From: an uncultured Lentimicrobiaceae bacterium
GTDB lineage: Bacteria > Bacteroidota > Bacteroidia > Bacteroidales > WCHB1-69
NCBI GenBank assembly: GCA_964653595.1
Contig: CAZZHH010000003.1
Location: forward strand, 37,957-101,956
Direction of reading: 5' to 3'
Length of the DNA: 64,000 bases
This document shows positions 43,991-63,377 of the stretch, in pieces. Under the pieces are notes generated by a model. The model did not search any database. It saw only the letters and a list, made by a program, of their open reading frames with translations, and was not told the origin of the DNA. Position 1 is the stretch's first letter. Each line of letters begins with the position of its first letter. The translations under genes were made by a program, and so were the position numbers.

Positions 43991-44006
43991 TTTTACGTGT
44001 GGTATA
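43991..44006 (+). repeat. 17-mer family, degenerate copy
   Basis: TTTTACGTGTGGTATA. Confidence 0.4.
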
Positions 44007-44042
44007 AGATAGAATATCTTGCACAAAATGCGAATGAGTTTT

Positions 44043-44064
44043 AGGGGAAGCCGAAACTTCCCCT
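44043..44064 (-). terminator. terminator after 44071..44601
   Basis: AGGGGAAG-loop-CTTCCCCT. Confidence 0.7.
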
Positions 44065-44070
44065 GTCAAT

Positions 44071-44601
44071 CTATTTCAATACTCCCCGATACTGTTCCAT
44101 TTCCTTATAGTAATCACATTCTACAATATGATACATATTTTGTTTGATAAACCCAAGGCAATTGTTTATATCATCATCACTTGCAAGGAATGCGAATATG
44201 TTCCCGTCCGTAGATTCATAATAGCGGCGGTCGTCTGCAAGGTCAAGGAATTCTTTATATACATCGCTGGGCATTTCAACAAGAAACATGTTCCCATTTA
44301 CATGGTGAATGTATTTGACAAATTGACAATTTTCACTTCGCAAATTATCCCCGAACAAACATTCAAAGTATTTAAACAGGAAATATTCGATTAACCTTTT
44401 GTAACTTTTCACATAATCTACTTTCTCCATCATGAAGTCATAGATATCCCCTGCAGGCTTCGTGATTCCGTACCGTTCGCATTCCGTACAAGCCCGACTA
44501 TACAGTTGTGACGTAATGTAATTTGTTGCGCCTTGATTCCTCGTATCTCGTGCGAAAAAGTCAGGGAAATAAACTTGTACTGTGTCTTTCGTGTTGCTCA
44601 T
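44071..44601 (-). CDS. Fam-A paralog (unknown function)
   Basis: Trimmed to ATG 44599-44601 (AAAGAGAGAAC SD); VQVYFPDFFARD...FLVEMPSDVYKEFLDLA; track N-terminus is read from the promoter. Confidence 0.75.
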   Translation of the reverse strand: MSNTKDTVQVYFPDFFARDTRNQGATNYITSQLYSRACTECERYGITKPAGDIYDFMMEKVDYVKSYKRLIEYFLFKYFECLFGDNLRSENCQFVKYIHHVNGNMFLVEMPSDVYKEFLDLADDRRYYESTDGNIFAFLASDDDINNCLGFIKQNMYHIVECDYYKEMEQYRGVLK

Positions 44602-44676
44602 GTTGTTCTCTCTTTCTTTGTGTGTCATATTATACAATTGGCATTCAGATTTATTCACAATATTTAAGAAAAGTTT

Positions 44677-44698
44677 GGGGATTCATTTCTGAATCCCC
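44677..44698 (-). terminator. terminator after 44708..45673
   Basis: GGGGATTCA-GAAA-TGAATCCCC (minus strand). Confidence 0.75.
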
Positions 44699-44707
44699 AT
44701 TCAGAGT

Positions 44708-45673
44708 TTAGGCTACCTGTTCGGTTTCTTGTTTAACTTCCTTGCCTTCCAGTTTGTTTGTGAGATACATAACGTTTTCACTGACACGTTTCATAAGTCT
44801 GCTGACTGCTTTCATAGCCGCTTCAGGTTCTTTATCGTTCCACGAAGTGATGTAATCAAGAACGCCGCTCAAGTCAACCTTATTTTCATAACCCAAGTAA
44901 GCCAACAGGACAGCCGAGCCGAATTCAGCAACCGTTTCACATGTTTTTCTGCATTCGATATCTTTGTGATAGTTTTTAACATGATTCGGATAATTCACTT
45001 CATCGGCGGCATGAATAAGCTCATGAGCGAACACGGTTTCTGTTTTGGCCTTCAGGTAAATAGCGTTAGCTTTTGCGCTATAACCGCCCCAAGCTTCGCC
45101 AAGGTTCCGTGCCGAAACAGTGATATTCAACAGCCTTGCAATTTCCAACAGCGGCGCAGTGTTTTCTCCGTTATAATACTGTTCTACAGATTCGTTCTCT
45201 TCAAGAGGTTTTCCATCCGTTTGAGATACGTCGAATTGCGGTGTAAGCGTGAAACGCATTCCCTTGACAACTTTTTCTTTTTCGCCGTTTTCGTTAATTT
45301 CTTCGTCCAAGATAGGAACAGGCTTAAAAACAAACAAGGCTTTTTCGCCGCTTTTCACATAACGTCCAGCTTTTTTCCATTCATTATAGTTTCTTGCGTC
45401 TGTTGCGCCTTGGGCAATAAGTAACAAGCGATTAAAAACGCTTAATTTATCTTGTGGAAGTTTGGCGATACGGAAAGTCTCATGACAAACACTTTTCACT
45501 AATGTACCATTTTCACACATTTCTTTTAACATGTTAAAAATCTTCGAAGCGCAACCTTGCATTCTAACGGCTTTATCTTCAGCGGCTTTCGGTGTAACGT
45601 TCCAACTTGTCTTGTTGTTATTCCAAGGCATTTTAACCGAATTGCGGTTGTTGCGGCTGTAACTGTTGTTCAT
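44708..45673 (-). CDS. ArdC-like anti-restriction protein (ssDNA-binding N-domain plus HExxH metallopeptidase-like domain)
   Basis: NRLLLIAQGATDARNYNEWKKAGRYVKSGEKALFVFKPV (ArdC-N pattern), VFAHELIHAADE (HExxH) and ETVAEFGSAVLLAYLG. Confidence 0.8.
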   Translation of the reverse strand: MNNSYSRNNRNSVKMPWNNNKTSWNVTPKAAEDKAVRMQGCASKIFNMLKEMCENGTLVKSVCHETFRIAKLPQDKLSVFNRLLLIAQGATDARNYNEWKKAGRYVKSGEKALFVFKPVPILDEEINENGEKEKVVKGMRFTLTPQFDVSQTDGKPLEENESVEQYYNGENTAPLLEIARLLNITVSARNLGEAWGGYSAKANAIYLKAKTETVFAHELIHAADEVNYPNHVKNYHKDIECRKTCETVAEFGSAVLLAYLGYENKVDLSGVLDYITSWNDKEPEAAMKAVSRLMKRVSENVMYLTNKLEGKEVKQETEQVA

Positions 45674-45798
45674 GTTTCTATTTCCCTTCGTTTTGTGTTT
45701 GCTATATATTACAATCGAGATGAGAATTTATTCACAAATTCAGAATTTTTTTCTTTTGTTTCTGCACTGCTTTGATTCTGTTCTCTCTTGTTTCGCCT

Positions 45799-45833
45799 AT
45801 ATATTACAACTCAAGCGGATATTTATTCATGAA
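45799..45833 (-). promoter_or_regulatory. orphan promoter module (no ORF behind it)
   Basis: ATGAATAAATATCCGCTTGAGTTGTAATATATAGG plus SD-like AAGAGAGAAC, then the next promoter (45704-45738) with no ATG between. Confidence 0.5.
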
Positions 45834-45869
45834 TTTTTAACATTTTTTATTCCATATAATAGTTTTACA

Positions 45870-45886
45870 TTTTACGTGGGGGGTAC
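45870..45886 (+). repeat. 17-mer copy
   Basis: TTTTACGTGGGGGGTAC; first of a tandem pair. Confidence 0.6.
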
Positions 45887-45891
45887 CCAAA

Positions 45892-45908
45892 TTTTACGTG
45901 GGGTACAG
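45892..45908 (+). repeat. 17-mer copy
   Basis: TTTTACGTGGGGTACAG. Confidence 0.7.
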
Positions 45909-45930
45909 GTTTTTTTCTGAATAAGAAATT

Positions 45931-45952
45931 GGGGATTCATTTCTGAATCCCC
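45931..45952 (-). terminator. terminator after 45959..46618
   Basis: GGGGATTCA-GAAA-TGAATCCCC. Confidence 0.75.
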
Positions 45953-45958
45953 GTTGTT

Positions 45959-46618
45959 TTACTTCACGATAATTTGAATTGGTTCATGATCCCAAAACTT
46001 ATGGCCTATTGTGAATAAGTCGTTTGCTGGGCAATGCGCTAATTTCATCATGATATTAAACAGGCTTTGCAAACAATCTCTATAAGAGCCTTCTTCACAA
46101 CCGTCGTATGCGAGTCCTGAAATAATTTCAACTTGTTCGGTAAAAACATCCAAGGCTTCCAAATAATGTTTAGTGTGCAAACCATAAGGGAATATGACTT
46201 TTGCTTTTTCACGAGATCCAATACTTATTTCAACGACGTGCGGTTTATTAAATTTGCCCACAATGTAGTTTTCAAGAACATCATCTTCTTTCATTGCTAT
46301 AGCTTCTGCGATAATCTGTATCAAATCTACATGGACAAATACATTTTGCGAAACAGCTTCACGAGAGCAGTTAAACTTTTTCATTGCTTCTTCAAAAATT
46401 CCCAACACGTGGTTTTCATCAATGCATATATCCGCAAGAGGTTGGGTTGATTCAGGTTTTTTATTTCCGTAAGTTATAACATACTTCAACGCCGTATAAA
46501 AATAAGGCAACATTTCATCATGATTAACTCTGTTAAAAATTTTTTCAGCGTCAATTTCAAATTCTCTCAAAAACTGCTCAAGTCTTGTTGTTCCTTCTTT
46601 GAATTCCTGAAGTATCAT
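45959..46618 (-). CDS. hypothetical protein (219 aa)
   Basis: Trimmed to ATG 46616-46618; the MKGIKKM prefix in the track is the SD read as codons. Confidence 0.75.
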   Translation of the reverse strand: MILQEFKEGTTRLEQFLREFEIDAEKIFNRVNHDEMLPYFYTALKYVITYGNKKPESTQPLADICIDENHVLGIFEEAMKKFNCSREAVSQNVFVHVDLIQIIAEAIAMKEDDVLENYIVGKFNKPHVVEISIGSREKAKVIFPYGLHTKHYLEALDVFTEQVEIISGLAYDGCEEGSYRDCLQSLFNIMMKLAHCPANDLFTIGHKFWDHEPIQIIVK

Positions 46619-46711
46619 TTTCTTAATTCCTTTCATTTGGTAATACTTAATACAATTGACGCTACATTTTATTCACTAATTGTTAATTTTTATCCCATGA
46701 ATTATACAGAA

Positions 46712-46729
46712 TTTTGCGTGGGGGTACAG
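46712..46729 (+). repeat. 17-mer copy
   Basis: TTTTGCGTGGGGGTACAG. Confidence 0.6.
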
Positions 46730-46756
46730 GATGTTCTGTTTTGCGTAATATGCTAA

Positions 46757-46783
46757 TAGGCGGGGAATTTTCACCCCCGCCTA
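46757..46783 (-). terminator. terminator ~85 nt after 46868..47158
   Basis: TAGGCGGGG-loop-CCCCGCCTA. Confidence 0.65.
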
Positions 46784-46867
46784 CAAAATTCACAAGTTTA
46801 GTTATATTTGTTACTTTTCACTAATCGTTTAAACACTCTTTAATTTGTCTATATTTAAACAAATTTT

Positions 46868-47158
46868 TCAGATTGTATCACTTTTGTTTTTTCTTTCTTC
46901 TATTTCATTTTTTAACGAAAACAATCGTACAATAGACTGAAGAGTTTGCCTTGCGTTTTTAACTGGTATTTGAGGAAGATATCCTATATTCATACGTTCT
47001 ACTGGTTCAAGGCAATAACTGTCACCTATTTTGACAATGACAAATTCTATACCGATAATTTTGTTTAATATTTTTATATATTCTTTTATCCAGAAATCAT
47101 CTTCCATTTCGTGTTTTTTCTTCATTTCTGCTTTTTGTCTTTTAAGGCTGTCGTCCAT
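46868..47158 (-). CDS. hypothetical protein (96 aa)
   Basis: Own promoter; GAAAGGTTTAG SD. Confidence 0.7.
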   Translation of the reverse strand: MDDSLKRQKAEMKKKHEMEDDFWIKEYIKILNKIIGIEFVIVKIGDSYCLEPVERMNIGYLPQIPVKNARQTLQSIVRLFSLKNEIEERKNKSDTI

Positions 47159-47233
47159 ATTTCTAAACCTTTCATTTTTGTGTTTGCTATATATTACAAT
47201 CGAACAGGTACTTTATTCACAAATTGTTATTTT

Positions 47234-47602
47234 TCATCTAATGTATTCTTCAGGGAAATATTTTCTTACACAATCTTGAGTAAATTTGTATTTTGTTTTT
47301 CCAACAATGGCAACGGTGTTTATTTGCGAATGTACAGCCTGTACGGCATTTGCAACACATGCGATACTGTCAGAACAAAAAGTGAACAACATGGCAATAT
47401 CCACAGGTGTTAAACGTTTTCCGTAAGAATCCGAAGCGTGTCTGTGACGGGTAACCAAATAATAAATGTGGTTTTCGAGAAATTTCTCAGCTTCGCCCTG
47501 TGTCATTCTTGAGAATGTTTCATGCATATTTTCATAGACTTTTGCCTCTGCTTCGTTTCGTACGGAAATTTCTTTCTGTACGCTTTCGAAAAATGTGTTC
47601 AT
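47234..47602 (-). CDS. Fam-J paralog (unknown function)
   Basis: YENMHETFSRMTQGEAEKFLENHIYYLVTRHR block identical in 53344..53706. Confidence 0.75.
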   Translation of the reverse strand: MNTFFESVQKEISVRNEAEAKVYENMHETFSRMTQGEAEKFLENHIYYLVTRHRHASDSYGKRLTPVDIAMLFTFCSDSIACVANAVQAVHSQINTVAIVGKTKYKFTQDCVRKYFPEEYIR

Positions 47603-47674
47603 GATTTTAAACCTTTCATCTTGTGAAGTTACTTATTATTACAATTAGTGCGGATATTTATTCATAAACTTTGA

Positions 47675-48220
47675 TTACTTTGTTGTGTTCAATGCGAATA
47701 TTTCTTTAAGTTCCGATAAAAGATTTATAACCACAGGAAATTCTATACCGTATTCTAAAGGCTGAAACAACTCCGAAATGCCTGTATCTTTATTTAACGC
47801 ACATTCAATAATATTATTTATTAAATATAATGTTATGGTTTGTTTTGATTCTTCAAATCCGTTTAATTCATCTAAATGCTGAAACAACGTTTGATAGTCG
47901 ATAATCCAAGGGGATTCAAGTACATTGCCCACAAAATCAGATTCATGTATATCCATGCCGTCATAATCATCTGGATTCCCTTCATAATCTTTGCAATGTT
48001 TTTCACTGATTTCTTTGAATTTTTTACAAATATCGGCTTTTTCTTCAGGTGTTCCTGTAACGTAATTTTGTTTCATGGATAAAATTTGGTTGCACAAACC
48101 TTCAGGCGTATTTTTATCTTCAAAAAACGCAAGCGCAAAGTTAACTACTTTCATTTCCAGTTTGTTTTGCCCTGTTAAAGCCAAGATATTACGAACATGC
48201 TGTTTCAATACCTGATTCAT
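47675..48220 (-). CDS. hypothetical protein (181 aa)
   Basis: Own promoter; AAAGGAAAT SD. Confidence 0.75.
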   Translation of the reverse strand: MNQVLKQHVRNILALTGQNKLEMKVVNFALAFFEDKNTPEGLCNQILSMKQNYVTGTPEEKADICKKFKEISEKHCKDYEGNPDDYDGMDIHESDFVGNVLESPWIIDYQTLFQHLDELNGFEESKQTITLYLINNIIECALNKDTGISELFQPLEYGIEFPVVINLLSELKEIFALNTTK

Positions 48221-48303
48221 TTTCTTATTTCCTTTGTGAATTTTTCTTGTTTCGTTATTGTATTACAATTGGTGCGGATATTTATTCATGAATTATTATC
48301 ATT

Positions 48304-48762: not shown

Positions 48763-48865
48763 AATATTGATTTTCTTCCTTTCTTTCTTGTGTCACTATA
48801 TTACAGTTGAAGCAGTATTTTATTCACAAATTTTGAATATTTTTATTCCATGTAATTCATGGTCA

Positions 48866-48883
48866 TTTTACGTGGGGATACAT
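48866..48883 (+). repeat. 17-mer copy
   Basis: TTTTACGTGGGGATACAT. Confidence 0.6.
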
Positions 48884-50520: not shown

Positions 50521-50538
50521 CTGTACCCCACGCAAAAT
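50521..50538 (-). repeat. 17-mer copy, opposite orientation
   Basis: + strand reads CTGTACCCCACGCAAAAT, followed by TAAGTGAATAAAAA. Confidence 0.7.
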
Positions 50539-50586: not shown

Positions 50587-51117
50587 CTATTCAATAGCTT
50601 TGTTAAACCTTTCATGAAAATTCATTCTGTACCATTCTTTCGAGCGATTCTTCATTATGTTAATACATTCATCATAAACATCATCAATAACGATTTTACA
50701 GGTTCCGAGCATTCCATTAATCTGAGGGTCTTCTTCATTGTCATAACTAAAATACCCGTCTTCATTCCAACTTTTTCTTGTCAGGTCTTCAAGATTCGAA
50801 TCTTCCATGTACTTTCTTTTATAGATTCGGTTCATTGACTTAAAAATCTGTTCCATTTTTTCCTCAGGGATATCCAAAACTCTAAAAATAATACCCTCAT
50901 AATCGGAGACTCGGATAATTTCATCGGTATCAAAATCGGCGTCTTCAAAGTCGGGTTGTGTTGGTTCGTAATCTTCATCATAATATTCGTCTCTCATGGC
51001 TTCGTTGACACAATCAAAGTTTTCAAACACGTCCTGAGCGGTATTTTCAATGTTTATATTATTATATACCATTGTAGTACCGTTTTCTTTATCAACTACA
51101 CATATAACTAAACTCAT
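50587..51117 (-). CDS. Fam-M paralog (acidic, unknown function)
   Basis: Trimmed to ATG 51115-51117 (GGAG SD); MSLVICVVDKENGTTMVYNN aligns with 55762..56259. Confidence 0.75.
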   Translation of the reverse strand: MSLVICVVDKENGTTMVYNNINIENTAQDVFENFDCVNEAMRDEYYDEDYEPTQPDFEDADFDTDEIIRVSDYEGIIFRVLDIPEEKMEQIFKSMNRIYKRKYMEDSNLEDLTRKSWNEDGYFSYDNEEDPQINGMLGTCKIVIDDVYDECINIMKNRSKEWYRMNFHERFNKAIE

Positions 51118-51159
51118 GGTTCGAACTCCGTTCATTTTATTTTGTTTCTTGTTTCGTAG

Positions 51160-51193: not shown

Positions 51194-51248
51194 ATTCAGA
51201 ATCTTTTTTTTATAGGTATGTTTTTTAATTCCATATAATAGCTCTACA

Positions 51249-51265
51249 TTTTACGTGGGGTACAG
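51249..51265 (+). repeat. 17-mer copy
   Basis: TTTTACGTGGGGTACAG. Confidence 0.7.
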
Positions 51266-51947: not shown

Positions 51948-52075
51948 TTTGTTACTCCATTCATTTTGTATTTTCTTGTTTCGCAATTATACTACAATTG
52001 AGTAGGTACTTTATTCATAAATTCTTAATTTTTTTCTTATAGGTATGTTTTTTAATTCCATATAATAGCTTTACA

Positions 52076-52092
52076 TTTTACGTGGGGTACAT
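52076..52092 (+). repeat. 17-mer copy
   Basis: TTTTACGTGGGGTACAT. Confidence 0.7.
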
Positions 52093-53295: not shown

Positions 53296-53313
53296 CTGTA
53301 CCACACACAAAAT
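53296..53313 (-). repeat. 17-mer family, degenerate, opposite orientation
   Basis: + strand CTGTACCACACACAAAAT. Confidence 0.45.
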
Positions 53314-53816: not shown

Positions 53817-53834
53817 CTGTACCCCACGTAAAAT
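53817..53834 (-). repeat. 17-mer copy, opposite orientation
   Basis: + strand CTGTACCCCACGTAAAAT then TAAGTGAATAAAAA. Confidence 0.7.
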
Positions 53835-54326: not shown

Positions 54327-54344
54327 TTCTTGTCCACTGTACCC
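54327..54344 (-). repeat. 17-mer copy, opposite orientation
   Basis: + strand CTGTACCCCACGTAAAAT then TAAGTGAATAAAAA. Confidence 0.7.
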
Positions 54345-54370
54345 CACGTAAAATTAAGTGAATAAAAAAA

Positions 54371-54401: not shown

Positions 54402-55073
54402 TTAGTTACTTTTTACTTTCACCTCGTTTCTTGTAACTATTTGCATTTCGTCTTTGTATGTTCTACTAACTCTTGTGATGTGGTCAAAAATGCCGCCCTC
54501 GTAAAAGCCGCCGAATATACTATCGAGCTTAAACTTAGTTTTGATGTTACATAATATGATAGTGTCAAAACCTGTGTTATAAAACGCACGCACGCCTATG
54601 GATTTAACACAGTAAAGCGTTTTACATTTTTCTCCACCAAACCTGTGGTGTCCGAAATGGTCTAAGCTACAACAATCATAAAAGGCAAAATCACTTATTG
54701 TTTCAACTAAAGGGCAATCAATTGATGTAACACAACCACAACCCGCGAATGCGCCTGTGCCAATTACTCTTACTCTATCATACCCAACAACTTTACACAG
54801 ACTTGCACAACCCGCAAATGCGTAATTACCAATGGTTTCAATATTGCTTAAACGAACCGTGCGCACGTCGGAACCTGCAAATGCGCCATCTGCAATGTGT
54901 TTCACAGCGTATTTTTTGCCCTCATACTCGAATTCACAGGGAATTTCAATCTCGGCGGTGTTGTAATAATCGGACTTAATAACAGGCATTGAAAGAACTG
55001 TTGCTTCCATGCGATATGGATTCAGTTGAAACGATCCAGCAAATTCTGTTTTGACTGTGATATAGATAGACAT
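54402..55073 (-). CDS. BspA-type leucine-rich-repeat protein
   Basis: Trimmed to ATG 55071-55073 (AGGGG SD); HIADGAFAGSDVRTVRLSNIETIGNYAFAGCASL. Confidence 0.75.
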   Translation of the reverse strand: MSIYITVKTEFAGSFQLNPYRMEATVLSMPVIKSDYYNTAEIEIPCEFEYEGKKYAVKHIADGAFAGSDVRTVRLSNIETIGNYAFAGCASLCKVVGYDRVRVIGTGAFAGCGCVTSIDCPLVETISDFAFYDCCSLDHFGHHRFGGEKCKTLYCVKSIGVRAFYNTGFDTIILCNIKTKFKLDSIFGGFYEGGIFDHITRVSRTYKDEMQIVTRNEVKVKSN

Positions 55074-55198
55074 GGTATTACCCCTATAAGAATTTTTTAA
55101 CTTCACTACATAACTACAATCGAACAGGTACTTTATTCATAAAAGATGAATTTTTTTGCTTTATATGCGAATTGTTAATTCAAGAAAACCAGTTGTAT

Positions 55199-56259: not shown

Positions 56260-56357
56260 TTTTCTAATCCCTTTCATCTTTTGAAGTTACTTATATCTAC
56301 AATCAAGTGGAAACTTTATTCACAAATTGTTATTTTTATTCTATGAGTTTTATGGTA

Positions 56358-56374
56358 TTTTACGTGGGGTACAG
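56358..56374 (+). repeat. 17-mer copy
   Basis: TTTTACGTGGGGTACAG. Confidence 0.7.
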
Positions 56375-56430: not shown

Positions 56431-57135
56431 TTAAATCCAAGCTGGTTGTGTTTTTGTATCTGGCAAACTGAATAACCAATCAATAACATCTTGAGGAACC
56501 TGTGCAAACTTTTTCTCTACCCCGAATATATGCCCACAAACTGGACAAGGTTTTCTGCATAATCCATCTGGGTGGTCATCTTCACGAAGATACAAAAGTT
56601 TGCTTTTTTTCATAAATGGAATATCCTTTTTATAGAATTCACTAATAGATTCATCAAGTTCTTCCTTATCGCTTTCACGGATTAACCGCAATAACGGTAT
56701 AATATGCGCTTTTTCTGTAAGTTGGAAATAAGTATGATTCTTATCTATTTTATTAATTTTCTTTATAGCGTCAAAAATTTCAGACGCTTCTCTTGTAATA
56801 ACAAATTGATACACATCTACTTCTTTCCAACACTGCTCAGGCCAACCCAACTCTTTTTGGTGTTCGCAATATGTACGCCTGTGATTTAAATTCCATTCAT
56901 TCCAAATTTGAATTAATCTTTCAACTTTCTCTTGATTAAATCCATCATTAAAACATTTAACGTTATTAAGTAATGCATTTTGAATTTGGTCACGATGACC
57001 TGTACAGCGCCCAAAAATTCTCGGCCCCTCAACTCCAGTAATTGTTAATGCGCCTTGTTCGTCCAATTCAATTTTAACATAAACTTGCATTTCTGTATTA
57101 CTGCACTTTTCCAATGGATTGATAATTTTAATCAT
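56431..57135 (-). CDS. hypothetical protein (234 aa) with C-terminal CxxC
   Basis: Trimmed to ATG 57133-57135; CRKPCPVCGH near the C-terminus; no family recognised. Confidence 0.75.
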   Translation of the reverse strand: MIKIINPLEKCSNTEMQVYVKIELDEQGALTITGVEGPRIFGRCTGHRDQIQNALLNNVKCFNDGFNQEKVERLIQIWNEWNLNHRRTYCEHQKELGWPEQCWKEVDVYQFVITREASEIFDAIKKINKIDKNHTYFQLTEKAHIIPLLRLIRESDKEELDESISEFYKKDIPFMKKSKLLYLREDDHPDGLCRKPCPVCGHIFGVEKKFAQVPQDVIDWLFSLPDTKTQPAWI

Positions 57136-57221
57136 TACTGTACTCTCTTTCATTTTTAAGGTTACTTATTATTACAACCGAACAGAAATTTTATTCACAA
57201 ATTACTATTATATGCGAATAA

Positions 57222-57255: not shown

Positions 57256-57477
57256 TTACTTGTGATTGATTTCATCAAGAATACGTGTCACTACATCCAA
57301 AGCATCACGCAATTGGCTTTTAGTCATTGATTTAGATAAATCCACAACACCGCCGCCATTAAGGTGCAGTTCAAGTTTATTTCCGTTTATGGTTTTCGTT
57401 ACTTCAAATTTGCCATGCGGCAATTCAGGCAAACGCCTCAAGCAAATTTCAATTTCTTTGTTTGTTGCTCTGTTCAT
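57256..57477 (-). CDS. Fam-L paralog (73 aa, unknown function)
   Basis: Aligns with 49491..49709; own promoter and terminator. Confidence 0.7.
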   Translation of the reverse strand: MNRATNKEIEICLRRLPELPHGKFEVTKTINGNKLELHLNGGGVVDLSKSMTKSQLRDALDVVTRILDEINHK

Positions 57478-57562
57478 GATAGGATTCCTTTCATCCTTTG
57501 AAGTTACTTATATCTACAATCGAGTAGAAACTTTATTCACAAATTGTTATTTTTTTATGGTA

Positions 57563-57579
57563 TTTTACGTGGGGTACAA
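57563..57579 (+). repeat. 17-mer copy
   Basis: TTTTACGTGGGGTACAA. Confidence 0.65.
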
Positions 57580-57655
57580 AATGCATTACAAAAAAAGGGG
57601 GATTCATTTCTGTTCATAATCCCTACCACTGTATAATGTCGGGAGTTTCCCGTGT

Positions 57656-57690: not shown

Positions 57691-57722
57691 ATTGTTATTT
57701 TTATTTGGGAATTGTTCCGCCC

Positions 57723-57757
57723 CTCCCCATGTAAAATATTTCAACCCCACGCAAAAT
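57723..57757 (-). repeat. double half-site version, opposite orientation
   Basis: + strand CTCCCCATGTAAAATATTTCAACCCCACGCAAAAT; inverted relative to 58809-58842. Confidence 0.55.
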
Positions 57758-57814: not shown

Positions 57815-58615
57815 TTAGCAACATTCCTCCAACATGTATAAAACATCTTTAGCGCCGAGAAGCCGTTTTTTCTTTTTATACACCTTAACTGTGATTGTCC
57901 CCTCGTTGTTGTCTTGAATTTTTACCCTCGTCACCAACTCACCACTGAATGCCTGACTGTGAATTTCTGGTTTTTCGCCATTATACTTAAATGTCAAATC
58001 GTCAAATCTTGTGTTACAAAATGCCGATTTCCCAATATGCTTCACGTTGAAAAACACGTGTTCCCAATCAAACAAAACAGAAGTATTCTCATAGACCTTG
58101 TTCAAACGTTCGCAATTATAAAAAGCATAATCCCCAATATCGACAACGCCATGAATGCAACATTGAGAAATATTACTTGACTCAAACGCAAATTTTCCAA
58201 TTCGTGTAACATGCGAGAAACAACTGTAAAAGCTAATCAGTTCTCTCGTGTATGCAAAAGCATGATCGCCAACATATTTCAAATTCGATCCGAATAACAC
58301 TCTTTTGAACATTGTGCCTGAAAATGCATAATCAGCTATAGCAGTAACTTTGATTTTTTCGCCGTCATACAGAACATCATTAGCTAATGATAATTCACCC
58401 TCAAAATTCCGAGCTTCAGGCATAACTCGATTGACTATCATCCCAAGGCACTTGGTTTCTTGATGGTCAAAATAATACTTTGCATATTCAATGCCATTAC
58501 AAATAACCGTTTTTTGGTCTACCTGATAGCACAAACCAAATAAAGAGTTTGAAATTCCGCAATTTCCAATATTACTATAAACAAACTCATTTGTATTCTT
58601 TGTTTCCGTAGTCAT
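57815..58615 (-). CDS. BspA-type leucine-rich-repeat protein
   Basis: AGGAG SD; AIADYAFSGTMFKRVLFGSNLKYVGDHAFAYTRELISF; unusually long structured leader. Confidence 0.8.
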   Translation of the reverse strand: MTTETKNTNEFVYSNIGNCGISNSLFGLCYQVDQKTVICNGIEYAKYYFDHQETKCLGMIVNRVMPEARNFEGELSLANDVLYDGEKIKVTAIADYAFSGTMFKRVLFGSNLKYVGDHAFAYTRELISFYSCFSHVTRIGKFAFESSNISQCCIHGVVDIGDYAFYNCERLNKVYENTSVLFDWEHVFFNVKHIGKSAFCNTRFDDLTFKYNGEKPEIHSQAFSGELVTRVKIQDNNEGTITVKVYKKKKRLLGAKDVLYMLEECC

Positions 58616-58808
58616 GATATGACTCTCCTATATATTATATGGTTTTTACACACAAGGAACGCCGCCCGTGGCGTTCCGATTCATTGAGATGTCAAAGAGC
58701 GGTGTTCCTTGTTGCGTAATATATCTACAGTTGAGTAGGCACTTTATTCATGAAAGATGAATTTTTTGTTATATGCAGTCTTTTTTTTATTCTATGAGTT
58801 TTGTGGAA

Positions 58809-58842
58809 TTTTGCGTGGGGGAGAGATATTTTACATGGGGAG
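58809..58842 (+). repeat. double half-site version
   Basis: TTTTGCGTGGGGGAGAGATATTTTACATGGGGAG. Confidence 0.55.
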
Positions 58843-58874
58843 GAAAATGTGGGATTCTTCAGAACAAAAAAAAT

Positions 58875-58900
58875 AGGGGGATTCATTTCTGAATCCCCCT
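58875..58900 (-). terminator. terminator after 58908..59774
   Basis: AGGGGGATTCA-GAAA-TGAATCCCCCT then T8. Confidence 0.8.
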
Positions 58901-58907
58901 ATGTTCA

Positions 58908-59774
58908 TTATGCTGGAATGGCTTCCTGTTCGGTTTTTCCCTCCAGTGCGTTCACAAGATACGTGACATTCTTTTCAACACGTTTAATTAGCCTACTAAC
59001 GGCAATAAGTGCCTGTTTAGGGGATTTATCGTTCCAACTGGTTAAATAGCTTAAAACGCCGTTTAAATCGCAATGGGATTCATAACCCAAGTAGGACATT
59101 AAAACCGCCGCCCCGAATTCTGCAACCGTCTCACACATTTGACGGCATTCCATATTATTATGATAATCCTCATTCTGTTTTTTGTAGTTGACGTAATCGG
59201 CGGCATGAATCAGTTCATGAGCGAAAACGGATTCATCTTTTGACTTCAAAGTGATTTTATTGCTCAATGCGTAATACCCGCCCAATGCACTTCCTGAATC
59301 TTCGGCAATCACTTTAATGTCAAGTTGTTTTGCAATTTCATACAAGGGGGCTTTATTCCCGCCCTCATAAAATGTTTCAATCATTTTTTCGGATTCAAGG
59401 GGTTCTCCGTCTGTTTGGGAAACGTCGAAACGGGGCGACAATGTAAAGCCTATGCATTTATTTTTATCGTCTTCGTTTTCATCTTTTTCTTTGATAATAA
59501 GGGGCTTGAAAATGAAGACGGCTTTTTCGCCGCCCTTGACAAACCGTTTAACTTTTTTCCATTCATTGTAAGTTCTTGCGTCCGTGGCGCCTTGTGCCAT
59601 TAAAAGCAGTTGATTAAAAACGCTTAACTTCGTTTGAGACAATCTTTTGACATTGAAAACTTCATGACGGACGTTAGAAACGAGGGTACCGTTTTCGCAC
59701 ATTGTTTTCATCATGTTAAAAAGTTTTGCGGCGCAATCTTGCATTCTGAATTCTTTTTCTTCCATTGTAGCCAT
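58908..59774 (-). CDS. ArdC-like anti-restriction protein (second copy)
   Basis: Trimmed to ATG 59772-59774 (AGGAG SD); NQLLLMAQGATDARTYNEWKKVKRFVKGGEKAVFIFKPL, VFAHELIHAADY, ETVAEFGAAVLMSYLG. Confidence 0.8.
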   Translation of the reverse strand: MATMEEKEFRMQDCAAKLFNMMKTMCENGTLVSNVRHEVFNVKRLSQTKLSVFNQLLLMAQGATDARTYNEWKKVKRFVKGGEKAVFIFKPLIIKEKDENEDDKNKCIGFTLSPRFDVSQTDGEPLESEKMIETFYEGGNKAPLYEIAKQLDIKVIAEDSGSALGGYYALSNKITLKSKDESVFAHELIHAADYVNYKKQNEDYHNNMECRQMCETVAEFGAAVLMSYLGYESHCDLNGVLSYLTSWNDKSPKQALIAVSRLIKRVEKNVTYLVNALEGKTEQEAIPA

Positions 59775-59911
59775 AGTCAAGCTCCTAAATGTATATTATC
59801 GGGTTTTTCCCGTGTTCGCAATTATATTACAACTGAAGGAGTATTTTTATTCACAAAAAATGAATCTTTTTTTTGTTATAGGTAATTTTTTTATAAATGA
59901 GTTTTGTGGAA

Positions 59912-59945
59912 TTTTACGTGGGGGAGAGATATTTTACATGGGGAG
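59912..59945 (+). repeat. double half-site version
   Basis: TTTTACGTGGGGGAGAGATATTTTACATGGGGAG. Confidence 0.55.
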
Positions 59946-59951
59946 GAATAA

Positions 59952-59971
59952 GGGGATTCATTCGAATCCCC
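59952..59971 (-). terminator. terminator after 59980..60249
   Basis: GGGGATTC-GAAT-GAATCCCC. Confidence 0.7.
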
Positions 59972-59979
59972 CAAATGAA

Positions 59980-60249
59980 TTAAATCTCCTTTGCAAGAAA
60001 TATGAATATGTCGTCGGGTCTTGAATCCGAGTCGGCATGATCGATTTTCAACGAATCATAAAGCGGGAAAACGCCATATGTGCGGCAACATTCTCGGCGC
60101 AATGTAAAACATTCAGGTTTCCATTCACCACATGTAAAAACATCACGTGACGGAATATGTAACGCCATAACACTCTGTGGCGAATGTTCAATTATTTTGT
60201 GAGCTTGTACAGCTGTCACTAAACTGCAACCGTGTCTATTGAATTCCAT
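59980..60249 (-). CDS. Fam-I paralog (unknown function)
   Basis: AGGAG SD; TCGEWKPECFTL block shared with 62827..63117. Confidence 0.65.
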   Translation of the reverse strand: MEFNRHGCSLVTAVQAHKIIEHSPQSVMALHIPSRDVFTCGEWKPECFTLRRECCRTYGVFPLYDSLKIDHADSDSRPDDIFIFLAKEI

Positions 60250-60380
60250 GATTCCTACTCCTGTATAATATCGGGTTTTCCCGTGTTCGCTATTATATTA
60301 CAATTGGGGAGAATCTTTATTCATAAAAAATGAATCTTTTTTTATAAATGAATCTTTTTTAACAAATGAGTTTTGTGGAA

Positions 60381-60443
60381 TTTTACGTGGGGTACAGGGC
60401 AAAAAATTTGGTCTGTATAAAAAACCCTGTACCCCACGTAAAA
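60381..60443. repeat. perfect 19-bp inverted pair of the 17-mer
   Basis: TTTTACGTGGGGTACAGGG - 25 nt - CCCTGTACCCCACGTAAAA. Confidence 0.8.
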
Positions 60444-60447
60444 TAGG

Positions 60448-60488
60448 GAAATTTTCCCGCCCAGTTTTTCACTGGGCGGGAAAATTTC
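60448..60488 (-). terminator. terminator after 60494..60922
   Basis: Perfect 17-bp stem GAAATTTTCCCGCCCAG/CTGGGCGGGAAAATTTC, 7-nt loop. Confidence 0.75.
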
Positions 60489-60493
60489 ATTTG

Positions 60494-60922
60494 TTAATAG
60501 GTCTTTCTGCTCATGTAGCGATCGAAATCGTCCGTATAATGGATATTGATGCATCCAGATTCTTTAGCGGTTTTAATGAACAGCGTATCTAACTCGTTTA
60601 GTGTGCTAACGGGAATGGCATAATCAAATTGCTCTTGAGTCACTCTTCTGTTAAACCATTCGGCATTACTATTTTTCCCGTTGACGTAGTTGACGTATTC
60701 GGCTTTAGTCATAAACTCAATGGCATAAGGTTCACAATCAGTACCCCCGCATTGCTCTATCGACTGCAAAGGGTCGGAAGCGGTAATCATAATGACACCA
60801 GCAAAATATCCACTTCGCCCGACACGGCGTATATAAAGATCATCACAGAATTCTTCTTTGTTTAACTCAACTGTTTTGAGCTGAAAAGAGGCGGAAGAAC
60901 TAAGTACGGAAACGGTAATCAT
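60494..60922 (-). CDS. hypothetical protein (142 aa)
   Basis: GGAG SD; leader shares a block with that of 54402..55073; 17-bp-stem terminator. Confidence 0.7.
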   Translation of the reverse strand: MITVSVLSSSASFQLKTVELNKEEFCDDLYIRRVGRSGYFAGVIMITASDPLQSIEQCGGTDCEPYAIEFMTKAEYVNYVNGKNSNAEWFNRRVTQEQFDYAIPVSTLNELDTLFIKTAKESGCINIHYTDDFDRYMSRKTY

Positions 60923-61050
60923 AATATACTACTCCAATAAGGATTTTTTAACTTCACTACATAACTACAACCAAGTAGGAACTTTATTCACAAAAGATGA
61001 ATTTTTTTCTTAACTATGTTGATTTTTTGTTCCAGAAAATACCTGGACGA

Positions 61051-61067
61051 TTTTGCATGGGGTACAC
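61051..61067 (+). repeat. 17-mer copy (variant)
   Basis: TTTTGCATGGGGTACAC. Confidence 0.55.
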
Positions 61068-61075
61068 AAAGATTT

Positions 61076-61099
61076 CAGGCGGGAAGAAATTCCCGCCTG
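61076..61099 (-). terminator. terminator after 61111..61698
   Basis: CAGGCGGGAA-loop-TTCCCGCCTG. Confidence 0.75.
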
Positions 61100-61110
61100 T
61101 GAATGAATTC

Positions 61111-61698
61111 TTATTCCTTTACTCCAATTTTGTTCAATCCGAATTTTACGGCTTCCTCGAGTGTTTCAAAATCGTAATAAGATTCTGTATAAGCGTTTTC
61201 AATATCGTAAACATTCACTTGAAAGAATCTGTTTTGAATGTTCTTTTCAATCAACCTTAAAGAACTCTCAAGGAACTCCTTATCAATCTTTTCGAACATG
61301 CTACTTTTAACATCGTCTGGAGTTGAAAAAATAAATCCGATTACTTTTGAGATTGCCTGTTCTGTGCTAAAAAGAATATTGTCATTTGCATAAATCGGCA
61401 AATAGATACAGTTATTTTTAATTAAATGTTTTTCAAATTCCTCAACATTTTTAAAATCCATCATATTAAAGCCAGCAAGAGGATGATGATTAATACGGAA
61501 ATTATTATTCGGAAAATGCACAATGTGTACGCGTCTCAACGCCAACAATTCACCAATAGACTTTTTATACCCTGTGACTGTGAATATTTTGTTGTCTGTT
61601 GTTTCACGATGTAAAACACTGTTTGAGAAAAATTCCGTTAACATTTTATACTTTTCTTCCCAGTGTGATAAAGAATGATACGGCGTTACTCTTTCCAT
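61111..61698 (-). CDS. hypothetical protein, distant Fam-C-like
   Basis: NCIYLPIY...VIGFIFSTPDD...FFQVNVY resembles CIFLPVY...GFIYITRED...LYATVAY of Fam-C (weak). Confidence 0.75.
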   Translation of the reverse strand: MERVTPYHSLSHWEEKYKMLTEFFSNSVLHRETTDNKIFTVTGYKKSIGELLALRRVHIVHFPNNNFRINHHPLAGFNMMDFKNVEEFEKHLIKNNCIYLPIYANDNILFSTEQAISKVIGFIFSTPDDVKSSMFEKIDKEFLESSLRLIEKNIQNRFFQVNVYDIENAYTESYYDFETLEEAVKFGLNKIGVKE

Positions 61699-61778
61699 GA
61701 TTCTAATACCTTTTCTTGTTTTGGCTTTACCTGTACTTACAATTAAGATTGATTTTTATTCGCAAATATTTAATAAAA

Positions 61779-61810
61779 TTCAGGACGGGAGTTTTTGTTC
61801 CCGTCCTGAA
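61779..61810 (-). terminator. terminator after 61819..62124
   Basis: 12-bp stem TTCAGGACGGGA/TCCCGTCCTGAA then ATTTTATT. Confidence 0.75.
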
Positions 61811-61818
61811 TTCGTTTA

Positions 61819-62124
61819 TCACGCTACGCCGAACGTAAAATATTCATCCGCCGAAGTTCCAATTGGCATATTAGAATCTCCAGCGTTCTGCAATATTTTT
61901 CCATCCTTGGAGATTCGCACAATGGACACACCGAATTCCATTGACATATGGCACATTACAAACTCTTCAGGTTGCCAAACGAAATTCGCCCAGCCGCGAC
62001 GATATCCATTCGTTAAAGCGTTCTTATCGACCACTTCAAAACACTTTCTACCCTTATTCTCAAGCTCTGCATGAAATTCCTGTGCCGTCATAACTTTAGT
62101 AACTTCTCTTGTTGTGCCGTTCAT
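61819..62124 (-). CDS. Fam-I paralog (unknown function)
   Basis: VWQPEEFVMC..GVSIVRISKDGKIL...ADEYFTF aligns with 62827..63117. Confidence 0.7.
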   Translation of the reverse strand: MNGTTREVTKVMTAQEFHAELENKGRKCFEVVDKNALTNGYRRGWANFVWQPEEFVMCHMSMEFGVSIVRISKDGKILQNAGDSNMPIGTSADEYFTFGVA

Positions 62125-62223
62125 GTTGTGCCGTCCTTAGTTTTAATGTGAAGTTATCAGCTTCGCTATATACCTACAGTTAGGATAATTTTTTATTCAC
62201 CAATAATGAATTTTTTTATTCTG

Positions 62224-62238
62224 CAACCCCATGTAAAA
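62224..62238 (-). repeat. 17-mer half-site, opposite orientation
   Basis: + strand CAACCCCATGTAAAA. Confidence 0.4.
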
Positions 62239-62243
62239 AACAT

Positions 62244-62266
62244 AGGCGGGAAATTTCTTCCCGCCT
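62244..62266 (-). terminator. terminator after 62272..62652
   Basis: AGGCGGGAA-loop-TTCCCGCCT. Confidence 0.7.
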
Positions 62267-62271
62267 TGATT

Positions 62272-62652
62272 TTATTCTGTGACTGCCTTTGCCCAAGTTT
62301 TTATTAAATCCTCTTTAATTTCAGAAGTTTCTGCCGCATTCGCCGCACTGCATTGTTCGCCTGTTTTCCAATGATAAGAGTTTCGTGTCATTCTGTTGCA
62401 TATAAGTAATTGCGCTTTACAATCCATACGCAACATAGCGCGAATGTAATCATAAACATCAGGCTCAAAATCACCAAGCCGACTCAATGGTTTTGCCAAG
62501 AAAAACATTTTAACGTTTTCCGTGAGTGTTTTTTGATCCATGACAATTTCTTCAACTGCTATGTCAACATTTTCTGCATGGTCACCGTCATTTTCAAGCC
62601 GCTGAAGATAATGGTCATTGCCCACTACAATGTAAACGAATTCGTTATTCAT
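62272..62652 (-). CDS. hypothetical protein (126 aa)
   Basis: TAAGGAC SD; own promoter and terminator. Confidence 0.7.
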   Translation of the reverse strand: MNNEFVYIVVGNDHYLQRLENDGDHAENVDIAVEEIVMDQKTLTENVKMFFLAKPLSRLGDFEPDVYDYIRAMLRMDCKAQLLICNRMTRNSYHWKTGEQCSAANAAETSEIKEDLIKTWAKAVTE

Positions 62653-62775
62653 GTTAAAAACCGTCCTTATAAAAGTATGGCGAAGTATGTTCCCTGTCGC
62701 TCGCCGTATACATACAAACAGGAATATTTTTTATTCATCATTTTTTTCGCCAGATAATTATTTTTTTGATATGTT

Positions 62776-62790
62776 CCAACCCCATGTTAT
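62776..62790 (-). repeat. 17-mer half-site, opposite orientation
   Basis: + strand CCAACCCCATGTTAT. Confidence 0.35.
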
Positions 62791-62793
62791 ATA

Positions 62794-62822
62794 ATCGGAC
62801 GGTGAATTCTCCGCCGTCCGAT
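62794..62822 (-). terminator. terminator after 62827..63117
   Basis: ATCGGACGG(T)G-loop-C(G)CCGTCCGAT. Confidence 0.7.
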
Positions 62823-62826
62823 CTGC

Positions 62827-63117
62827 TTATCCTATCATTCTTAGGAATGTAAAGTATTTTTCTGCATTATCTCCCGCCTTGGCGGTTGTATCGCCGTTTA
62901 CATGCATGATCGTTCCATCTTTTGCAACTCTTACACTGAAGCCATTCTCTTCCATTCCGCGCACTACAAAACACTCGGGCTTCCATTCGCCACAAACACA
63001 AACATCGCCAGTCTTTAATTCTACAGCTTTAATATTTACATAATTACTGTAATCACTGCTGATTTCAAGCAGACTATGCGCCTGTGTTGGCGTTGCCCTT
63101 TCAATCTTTGTAAACAT
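62827..63117 (-). CDS. Fam-I paralog (unknown function)
   Basis: VCGEWKPECFVV..GFSVRVAKDGTIM...AEKYFTF; last (most upstream) minus-strand cassette left of the non-coding region (another minus-strand gene ends at 63901). Confidence 0.7.
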   Translation of the reverse strand: MFTKIERATPTQAHSLLEISSDYSNYVNIKAVELKTGDVCVCGEWKPECFVVRGMEENGFSVRVAKDGTIMHVNGDTTAKAGDNAEKYFTFLRMIG

Positions 63118-63157
63118 AATACCGTGACCTTTCTTTATGTGAATTTCTTAACTTCGC

Positions 63158-63192
63158 TATATACCTACAATTAAGTATTCGTTTTATTCAAA
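63158..63192 (-). promoter_or_regulatory. promoter module for 62827..63117
   Basis: TTGAATAAAACGAATACTTAATTGTAGGTAT. Confidence 0.55.
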
Positions 63193-63223
63193 ACTCATGA
63201 AGAAAAAACATTTCTGAATATGG

Positions 63224-63254
63224 CAATACAAACAGTAATTCTTTTTATTCAGAA
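63224..63254 (-). promoter_or_regulatory. second, upstream minus-strand promoter module
   Basis: CTGAATAAA-N12-TTGTATTGCC, 65 nt upstream of the previous one; no ORF of its own. Confidence 0.45.
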
Positions 63255-63292
63255 AACCCTGAAAATAAACATTTAAAAAACCCAAAAAACCT

Positions 63293-63323
63293 CATGAATA
63301 AAAATCCAAAAAGATTGTATACA
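63293..63323 (+). promoter_or_regulatory. plus-strand promoter module facing the non-coding repeat region
   Basis: ATGAATAAA-N12-TTGTATACAG in + orientation; no convincing ORF downstream. Confidence 0.5.
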
Positions 63324-63365
63324 GGGAAACGTAATGGGGCCGTGGAGGAAACCTAATGGCCGCCC

Positions 63366-63377
63366 CTGTTACCCCAC
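63366..63377 (-). repeat. 17-mer-like fragment
   Basis: + strand CTGTTACCCCAC inside the candidate + transcript. Confidence 0.3.

Follow-up and report, generated by a model that had tools for sequence, protein, structure and literature searches.

An 18-bp intergenic element, in either orientation, behind the terminators of a single-gene cassette array: a putative protein-binding site in an uncultivated lineage

INTRODUCTION

The early regions of phage genomes show the fastest turnover of anti-defence genes, and the way in which new genes are slotted into them with expression left intact is only partly understood; the promoter-early stem-loops (PeSLs) of T4-like phages are the main described case of cassette insertion in early regions. 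Here we analyse a stretch of DNA of 64,000 nt (the window; positions 37,957 to 101,956 of contig CAZZHH010000003.1 from an uncultured Lentimicrobiaceae bacterium), where an 18-bp sequence, the 18-mer or the motif in what follows, recurs in the spacers of an array of small genes. A PeSL of T4-type phages is composed of a sigma-70 consensus promoter, an AT-rich tract and a stem-loop, without a separate extra motif (Arbiol et al. 2010, PMC2839356; Comeau et al. 2014, PMC4122927). Insertions, deletions and replacements between close relatives have junctions located in the repeated spacers and were attributed to homologous recombination between these (PMC2839356; PMC4122927).

The window is similar to the T4-type case in having repeated composite spacers, with promoter and terminator, around small ORFans, as in hyperplastic early regions; as with PeSLs, each cassette has its own promoter and terminator, and junctions between strains are located in the repeated spacers. 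The 18-mer is an extra spacer component without a described counterpart. The source contig is 103,198 bp long; the window has a GC content of ∼35% and contains ∼95 small open reading frames (ORFs), with nearly all genes on the minus strand. A plausible reading is that the window belongs to a mobile, phage-like genome.

RESULTS

Copies of the 18-mer and their location

The motif has the core CCCCAYGYAAAA and the full 18-base form CTGTACCCCACGTAAAAT. With one mismatch at most, the 12-nt core CCCCA[CT]G[CT]AAAA was found 26 times in the window, while 100 sequences simulated by a second-order Markov model of the window had 1.0 match on average and 4 at maximum; the full 17-mer with up to two mismatches had 13 matches, as compared with none in 100 shuffles. 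Thus, the ∼25 copies in the right-hand region and the degenerate one at 38.6 kb reported in an earlier reading made without database searches (the sequence-only reading) are real. One of the 26 core matches (60128) is situated inside gene 59980..60249 and is probably a chance occurrence; the other 25 fall between minus-strand genes. Two copies overlap plus-strand ORFs (45666..45920 and 57266..57619), both of them spurious and contained within spacers. Except for a degenerate outlier at 38594, the copies (24 of 25) lie within 43.99–62.24 kb. All 24 regional copies are intergenic, as the same reading had maintained (P = 4e-15, given the intergenic fraction of 0.25), and the confinement to the right 20 kb has p = 2e-8 relative to intergenic bases.

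Eighteen copies are in gene sense (minus strand) and seven are inverted (plus strand), a sense bias with p = 0.043. The flips in orientation had been noticed before, with positions that needed correction: the inverted copy placed at 54327 belongs at 54337, no CTGTA is read in the 57723 copy, and that at 53296 is degenerate. The information profile is a sharp island of 17–18 nt, (c)TGTA-CCCCAYGYAAAA-T, with no flank conserved in all copies; ten copies, among them copies in both orientations, are perfect over the 17 nt TGTACCCCACGTAAAAT. As read from the sequence, the motif has neither a palindrome nor an internal dyad. Tandem doublets with a spacing of 20–22 bp (about two helical turns) are present in four spacers. 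One spacer holds a perfect inverted pair, previously described as 19 bp long (60381-60399 / 60425-60443), which extends over 20 bp (60380-60399 / 60425-60444). Inverted doublets do bracket gene 57815..58615, as had been seen, at 57720-57757 (plus strand) and 58808-58845 (minus strand).

Association with terminators and the order of spacer elements

In the gene-sense direction a full spacer consists of a stop codon, a GC-rich hairpin (e.g. GGGGATTCAGAAATGAATCCCC) whose tail is rich in T (TTTATTCA or TTATTCGCAT), in many cases another small hairpin, then the 18-mer, an A-rich stretch, a promoter, the ribosome-binding site GAAAGG and ATG. Every copy is located 4–55 nt beyond a terminator hairpin, and 23–108 nt separate it from the next TGAATAAA-N11-ATTGTA promoter box; the ranges given earlier, 16–30 nt and ∼20–60 nt, were too narrow. 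The strongest association was missed by the sequence-only reading: of the spacers between 43.9 and 63.3 kb, 20 of the 25 with a terminator contain the motif, versus 0 of the 5 with a promoter only (Fisher p = 0.0018). Given this split, the motif is associated with terminators and not with promoters. In sense copies the distances to the promoter box cluster near 38, 58 and 78 bp.

Nearly every gene has the non-sigma-70 promoter class aatTTgTGAATAAA-N11-ATTGTAnTA in front of it, with ∼75 such genes spread over the entire window (4000-63300, minus strand; e.g. 52017, 33697 and 14593). As one promoter class is used all through the window, the motif is an added layer. The occurrence of this class across the window without the motif, together with hairpins called independently, agrees with the earlier view that the motif is neither a core promoter nor a terminator. 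Canonical sigma-70 sites are not enriched in the window (74 found versus 77.6 ± 8.4 expected); hairpin terminators are (44 versus 12.9 ± 4.1), and many of them are bidirectional.

It had also been proposed that the 17-mer and a GAATAAA element make up one invertible unit, a proposal that did not hold up. Sense copies are followed instead by a GGAATAAA-like box at 14–16 nt. In three inverted copies GAATAAA does occur, at 5 nt, as the reverse complement of the terminator tail TTTATTCA, and this tail is found in spacers with sense copies and in motif-free spacers as well.

Some further features of the spacers were observed. The promoter often has an upstream A-tract plus ATTCA, giving the dyad ATTCA-N7-TGAAT. 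Terminators with T-rich tails on both strands occur within 43800-63400 (e.g. 45930-45953, 51290-51313, 53851-53872 and 62244-62266), and the promoter box TGAATAAA, when reverse-complemented, gives the tails TTTATTCA and TTATTCGCAT (e.g. 52100-52125, 55715-55745 and 52700-52725). The stem of the second small hairpin, often present after the tail, varies with compensating changes (GCATTCCATGC, CGCATATTGCG and TCGCATGACAAGCGA). An 18-nt direct repeat, AAAAAGATTCATTTnTTA (2.6 copies, 60324-60369), is situated just upstream of a promoter box, and its GATTCAT complements the ATGAATC part of the box. At 57620-57700 a promoter, a 5′ leader and ATG are joined directly to a terminator hairpin; this 'empty cassette' looks like the scar of a deleted gene.

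Conservation of the motif in related strains

Look-ups of exact proteins gave strain-level relatives, L129-L133, L254, L284 and L255. The lineage is present in samples SRR10083294, SRR10083296, SRR10083308, SRR16308648, SRR23702512, SRR23702513, SRR8715493, ERR4682415, ERZ28614953, ERZ22666135 and JGI 3300045340. L255, a 15.9-kb contig (ENA sample ERZ28614953), is 94–97% identical to the window in shared cassettes and has ∼17 copies of the motif in the same kind of position, some of them next to genes missing from the window. The motif is retained in L255, L130 and L284, also beside strain-specific genes. Conservation in relatives, on which the sequence-only reading had made its proposal depend, was indeed observed: in orthologous spacers 9 of 273 motif columns (3.3%) differ between strains, versus 133 of 1798 other spacer columns (7.4%; p = 0.01). 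The copies at 53296, 62776 and 63367 are degenerate; the last one has no conserved counterpart in either L255 or L284, so that the array in effect stops near 62.8 kb. The copies are listed below.

38593..38610, minus strand: outlying degenerate copy CACAACCCCACGTAAAAA, 5 nt from the bidirectional hairpin that separates the convergent genes 38100..38561 (plus) and 38616..39410 (minus)
43990..44007, minus strand: degenerate sense copy TATACCACACGTAAAAT; the L130 orthologue, CCCCACGTAAAA, is nearer to the consensus
45869..45908, minus strand: tandem sense doublet, cores 45870 and 45892, 22 bp apart
46711..46729, minus strand: sense copy with one additional C, CTGTACCCCCACGCAAAAT
48865..48882, minus strand: sense copy GTATCCCCACGTAAAAT
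50521..50538, plus strand: inverted copy CTGTACCCCACGCAAAAT, 16 nt from the hairpin of the upstream cassette
51248..51265, minus strand: perfect sense copy
52075..52092, minus strand: sense copy ATGTACCCCACGTAAAAT; L255 homology stops exactly at its 3′ edge (52075)
53296..53313, plus strand: degenerate inverted copy CTGTACCACACACAAAAT
53817..53834, plus strand: perfect inverted copy; one substitution in the L255 orthologue (CCTCACG)
54337..54354, plus strand: perfect inverted copy, part of the LRR cassette 54402..55106, absent from L255
55198..55215, minus strand: sense copy CTGTACCCCACGTAAAAA
55687..55704, minus strand: perfect sense copy; left flank 100% identical to that of the 56357 copy, right flank unrelated right after AAAAT
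56357..56374, minus strand: perfect sense copy
57562..57579, minus strand: sense copy TTGTACCCCACGTAAAAT, following the 'empty cassette' hairpin
57720..57757, plus strand: inverted doublet, cores 57725 and 57745, 20 bp apart, downstream of LRR gene 57815..58615
58808..58845, minus strand: sense doublet, cores 58809 and 58829, 20 bp apart, upstream of LRR gene 57815..58615
59911..59948, minus strand: sense doublet, cores 59912 and 59932, 20 bp apart, upstream of ArdC-like gene 58908..59780
60380..60399, minus strand: sense arm of the perfect 20-bp inverted pair; L255 homology stops at 60380
60425..60444, plus strand: inverted arm of the same pair; the 69-nt module 60380-60448 is common to L255, with unrelated flanks
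61050..61067, minus strand: sense copy GTGTACCCCATGCAAAAT; homology to L255 and L284 stops at 61050
62221..62240, plus strand: inverted copy CTGCAACCCCATGTAAAAAA, whose T-run also serves as terminator tail
62776..62794, plus strand: degenerate inverted copy CCAACCCCATGTTATATAA, kept in L255 and L284
63367..63387, plus strand: doubtful copy TGTTACCCCACCCCTCTAAAA in the non-coding leader, not conserved in L255/L284 and probably no member

Cassette turnover at the motif

Whole cassettes differ between the window and L255. The window genes 60494..60922, 59980..60249, 57815..58615, 57256..57477, 56431..57153 and 54402..55106 are absent from L255 or replaced in it, and four L255 genes are missing from the window. 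By k-mer painting we saw homology to L255 stop at 61050, 60380 and 52075, in each case exactly on the 3′ edge of a motif copy; the coincidence of cassette breakpoints with the 17-mer, for which the sequence-only reading had suggested looking, was thus found at these three places. The 69-nt segment 60380-60448, which holds the inverted pair, is common to the window and L255, both of its flanks being unrelated. One L255-specific cassette is situated between 41-nt direct repeats that contain the motif, and one and the same pair of doublets brackets the 266-aa LRR gene 57815..58615 in the window and, in L255, another LRR gene of 212 aa. Junctions in the promoter module, about as numerous as those at motif edges, were observed at 56335, at the 86-nt duplication 55569-55655 and at 55151/54313 (against L255), as well as at 46675 (L130 and L132).

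Flanks were compared for the 40 copies of the window and L255 (780 pairs). In 32 pairs one flank is at least 80% identical and the other at most 55%; both flanks are shared in only six. In the clearest cases the flanks are 100% identical up to the motif and at random identity from the base that follows AAAAT or the one that precedes (C)TGTA. The motif is a crossover point and, with the promoter module, one of two recombination linkers for cassette exchange. General homologous recombination suffices for the breakpoints, since the promoter box behaves alike and the insertions carry direct repeats. Of the recombination or homing site suggested earlier, the part that stands is the position of the breakpoints at the motif; a dedicated site did not find support, with equally many promoter-module junctions and no recombinase among the 93 window proteins. 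Cassette replacement was seen in the motif-free left part, too: L087 (9622-10185) departs from the window at ∼5530 and has a different gene there, with a match to RNase_Y_N.

Genes and other features of the window

Those domains that could be recognised are of accessory kinds: nine BspA-type LRR_5 proteins, two ArdC-like anti-restriction proteins, two Lar-like proteins, an RNA ligase, ankyrin repeats and a radical-SAM NrdG-like protein. Among the 93 proteins of the window, which makes up 64 kb of the 103-kb contig, we found no recombinase, integrase, transposase, RNA polymerase, sigma factor or ParB-like protein.

Paralogue families are large across 1649-58615. A seven-member gene family is spread over 19610..43869, the ArdC-like pair 44708..45673 / 58908..59780 has a DNA identity of ∼66%, and LRR_5 gene 36276..37475, one of the nine BspA-type genes, has an internal 69-nt repeat in 14 copies. 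The first genes of the array (62827..63117, 61819..62124 and 59980..60249) make up one small family with conserved W-PE-F and KDG..I..GD....YFTF; it has no Pfam, PHROG or solved-structure match, and its relatives turned up in this lineage only. On the gene-sense strand the array starts after a non-coding G-rich leader (63.3-64.0 kb) upstream of the first cassette. Three short sets of direct repeats in the leader (e.g. 63582-63605, 63617-63654 and 63715-63741), GGGAAAGAA (2.7 copies), GGAAAGAATTC (3.5) and GGATAGGGGAA (2.5), are iteron-like and could indicate an origin or packaging region. Identity with the L255 leader, into which an LRR gene of the opposite strand is inserted (L255 5945-6454), is only ∼76%. 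Short palindromes are extremely avoided throughout 1-64000: CCGG is found 0 times versus 88 expected, CTAG 1 versus 37, CGCG 25 versus 102, GGCC 30 versus 82 and GATC 81 versus 163. Such avoidance is a signature of restriction-enzyme pressure.

Searches beyond the lineage

No relatives outside this lineage were found in IMG/VR, JGI metagenome contigs, species genomes, phage records or the literature, where all matches were single-copy, chance-level or unrelated. In an exact scan of IMG/VR the 18-mer was not found and a 14-mer was present in 85 stretches, with one match listed for each; the same scan of JGI metagenome contigs gave 38 stretches, 37 of them with single matches and one, the 55%-GC contig L097, with two. 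The 23 loci from an exact scan of 185,579 species genomes were all unrelated; L276, with three motif matches, comes from a 60%-GC genome and consists of a 374-bp tandem repeat. None of 50,697 phage records had a nucleotide match to the 20 kb in Megablast, and the gapped promoter pattern gave chance singles only in IMG/VR.

At the protein level, tblastn and a related-locus search with a 457-aa protein were both empty, and for the RNA ligase distant phages of Streptomyces and Nodularia were the only matches. The contigs around distant ArdC homologues (L257, 60% GC, and L260) were unrelated and without the motif. For an 814-aa neighbour protein in L086 there was no Pfam hit and no sequence match to a solved structure. 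Rfam, transfer RNA and tandem-repeat scans produced nothing involving the motif, and a literature search with the motif string only primers and microRNA sequences.

DISCUSSION

We propose that the 18-mer is a putative recognition site, in double-stranded DNA, for a sequence-specific protein, and assign to this reading a probability of roughly 0.45. The interpretation of the sequence-only reading is thereby supported in part. As perfect copies exist in either orientation, a duplex recognition site is favoured, which makes it unlikely that the motif is a core promoter, terminator or RNA signal. The 20–22-bp doublets, the clusters of promoter distances near 38, 58 and 78 bp, the position behind terminators and the restriction to the first 20 kb suggest a protein at the terminator–promoter junction; this putative protein is probably encoded elsewhere in the ∼103-kb phage-like genome. 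The composite spacer is made up of stop codon, bidirectional hairpin, TTATTC tail, 18-mer (single, or doubled at 20–22 bp), A-rich stretch, TGAATAAA-N11-ATTGTA promoter and ribosome-binding site, a full layout found only in the first ∼20 kb of the co-directional array of single-gene cassettes with anti-restriction and LRR genes. Once bound, the protein would act at the terminator–promoter junction regardless of orientation. It could insulate the cassettes, blocking read-through, or it could exert a temporal control shared by the first block of cassettes and missing from the other ∼44 kb despite the same promoter. Because the 18-mer is the sole identity between otherwise unrelated spacer halves, homologous recombination crosses over in it, and the 18-mer and the promoter box together are linkers for the insertion, deletion and replacement of cassettes between strains. 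Both the protein binding and its regulatory or insulating effect are what we infer from these features.

Several points weigh against a protein-binding site. A non-palindromic site is unusual for dimeric operators; five terminator-bearing spacers of the region have no motif, and the distance to the promoter is variable (23–108 nt). The clustering of these distances is confounded by the shared ancestry of spacer families and by the doublets. Conservation of the motif could stem from the recombination process itself, and the homologue searches, which returned strain-level relatives only, afford no deep evolutionary test. Pfam and PHROGs scans of the 93 window proteins gave no clear DNA-binding regulator; the helix-turn-helix candidate 8303..8656 had weak PHROG hits only and no sequence match to a solved structure.

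The likeliest of the alternatives, though still an unlikely one, is a dedicated recombination or mobility site, at which a recombinase or transposase encoded outside the window would exchange motif-bounded cassettes as units (for example doublet, promoter, LRR gene, terminator and inverted doublet), akin to integron cassettes or to those with terminal inverted repeats. Sharp breaks of identity at motif edges, both between strains and between paralogous spacers, speak for such a site, as do the 69-nt inverted-pair module between unrelated flanks in two strains and the same sense and inverted doublets around LRR genes as different as those of 266 aa (window) and 212 aa (L255). Furthermore, four window cassettes are bracketed sense-then-inverted; three of them (60494..60922, 57815..58615 and 54402..55106) are absent or replaced in L255, and the fourth, 50587..51135, is beyond the L255 contig end. 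Doublets at 20 bp recall the multiple transposase-binding sites at the ends of Mu or Tn7. However, promoter-module junctions are equally many (46675 in L130; 56335, 55655/55569 and 55151/54313 in L255), and insertions are flanked by 41–86-nt direct repeats, as from general homologous recombination. No target-site duplications could be read at the outer ends of the sense-then-inverted units; motif and gene orientation are uncoupled, with no inverted cassette in any strain, and recombinase, integrase and transposase domains were not found in the 93 window proteins. Next in probability, and likewise unlikely, comes a dedicated phage system of cassette handling whose recognition site would be the 18-mer, bound either by a cassette-moving recombinase or transposase or by a roadblock protein behind each intrinsic terminator. 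With a recombinase the first 20 kb would be an integron-like, self-renewing store of anti-defence and LRR genes; with a roadblock there would be orientation-independent, protein-mediated insulation analogous to TTF-I or Reb1 at ribosomal DNA spacers, and we know of no described phage example of such insulation behind terminators. Ranking behind both, and improbable, is a motif without function, a recombination linker homogenised by crossing-over and gene conversion (molecular drive) and spread along with the terminator module during cassette duplication and shuffling. Such a linker is consistent with flanks that reassort freely around the motif, with whole spacer families that are clearly paralogous and with the degenerate state of the farthest copies (43990 and 38593), as decay without exchange predicts. 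It does not account for ten perfect 17-mers in flanks of random identity with edges sharp to the base, nor for the fixed relation to terminators or the lower divergence of the motif between strains than of the rest of the spacer; both orientations are kept, although direct-repeat exchange cannot homogenise inverted copies.

We place after it, as improbable too, a promoter of a second transcription system, used either by an RNA polymerase that the phage encodes or the virion delivers, or by an alternative sigma factor; each transcription unit in the first 20 kb of cassettes would then possess two promoters. The long, asymmetric and nearly invariant element has a GC-rich centre followed by the AT-rich TAAAAT, which recalls promoters of the T7, T3 and Syn5 type. 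It is located at the start of terminator-delimited units, is absent from terminator-less internal spacers and is confined to the block nearest the leader; the bias to the sense orientation (18:7, p = 0.043) is weak support. Yet seven of the 25 window copies and, in L255, six good and two degenerate copies are inverted, several of them perfect, and inverted copies are directed into the hairpin upstream of them and into the upstream gene's antisense strand. There is no conserved start region after AAAAT and no RNA polymerase or sigma domain in the window, and the 814-aa neighbour in L086 gave no Pfam or structure match. Finally, a strand-specific signal for termination or the RNA 3′ end, such as a pause or release element backing up the hairpin, would fit the constant position just downstream of a terminator hairpin and the inverted copies whose T-run merges with the terminator tail (62221-62240). 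We consider it very improbable: the motif is perfectly conserved in both orientations, sense copies lie past the T-tract and so mostly outside the transcript, and the terminators of the left 44 kb work without it.

Other candidates were tried and rejected. A restriction site or decoy does not fit, as GTAC and ACGT are not avoided, and for the same reason the motif is unrelated to the avoidance of CCGG, CTAG, CGCG and GGCC. In an extracytoplasmic-function (ECF) sigma promoter the TGTAC and CGTA elements would be just 4 nt apart, and in a tandem pseudo-promoter of GGAATAAA and TTGTGA the spacing varies from 10 to 15 nt. A replication fork barrier is at odds with orientations that are interleaved and not in two opposed groups, and the leading region of a conjugative plasmid, with single-strand promoters, with the ordinary duplex promoter at each gene. 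Replication iterons form a cluster of 17–22-bp direct repeats, spaced at ∼22 bp, in a single origin region; the copies here, spread over 20 kb in ∼20 separate spacers, do not fit this and show only doublets at 20–22 bp; a separate iteron-like cluster of other sequences is present at 63.58-63.74 kb.

The pattern is private to one uncultivated lineage, and its function is what we infer. If protein-bound, the 18-mer would define a new regulon or insulator for first-expressed genes and offer a handle for finding the protein; if a recombination site, it would belong to a new cassette-exchange system. As the motif marks cassette borders precisely, the accessory genes (ArdC-like, Lar-like, LRR and many unknowns) are easily delimited as anti-defence candidates.

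Several described systems have part of this arrangement. Promoters of the T7/T3/SP6/Syn5 class are likewise asymmetric and intergenic, 17–23 bp long, present in near-identical copies and built of a GC-rich specificity part and then an AT-rich part; they are, however, all co-oriented with genes and have a conserved start, whereas here 28–40% of copies are inverted, nothing is conserved downstream and no polymerase gene was found in the window. Operators of the ParB/KorB type (the OB sites of IncP plasmids, the dispersed centromere sites of phage N15) are 13–16-bp palindromes bound by dimers, the ParB-family protein being encoded nearby. Many identical intergenic sites over tens of kb, at variable promoter distance and in either orientation, are common to them and the 18-mer; we rejected a ParB/KorB operator (parS, OB), since the motif is not palindromic, save for a resemblance of CACGT-AAA to half a parS, and the window has no ParB-like gene or ParB domain. 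Integron attC sites are structured imperfect inverted repeats in a single orientation, the cassettes are promoterless, and integrase and attI adjoin the array. The 18-mer is attC-like as a conserved element 3′ of each cassette in a co-directional array, coinciding with cassette borders; none of the other attC traits (structured repeat, uniform orientation, promoterless cassettes, adjacent integrase and attI) holds here, and attC was rejected for the lack of an internal dyad, the mixed orientation, the own promoter of each cassette and no integrase found in the window.

Linkers of the lambdoid mosaic, as seen in the modular theory, are also short conserved intergenic joints at which homologous recombination unites unrelated modules. 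Such boundary sequences are generally low-copy and weakly conserved, in contrast to the 18-mer, of which ∼25 near-identical copies occur within 20 kb, placed in a fixed relation to terminators. Miniature inverted-repeat transposable elements and mobile insertion cassettes (MITE/MIC) have terminal inverted repeats, target-site duplications and a cognate transposase. Here inverted copies bracket four window cassettes, no duplications were seen at the outer ends, and no transposase was found in the window.

Compared with PeSLs, the promoter is TGAATAAA-N11-ATTGTA, with no enrichment of sigma-70-type sites, the genome has no detectable relation to T4, and the 18-mer is an additional discrete element in either orientation, neither a promoter nor a terminator component, with no PeSL counterpart. 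The spacers as a whole work like PeSLs, yet are not members of the PeSL family, given a promoter that is not the sigma-70 consensus and no relation to T4 detected. What we see is the same PeSL-like logic in an unrelated, uncultivated genome, to which a discrete, orientation-independent 18-bp word tied to terminators is added.

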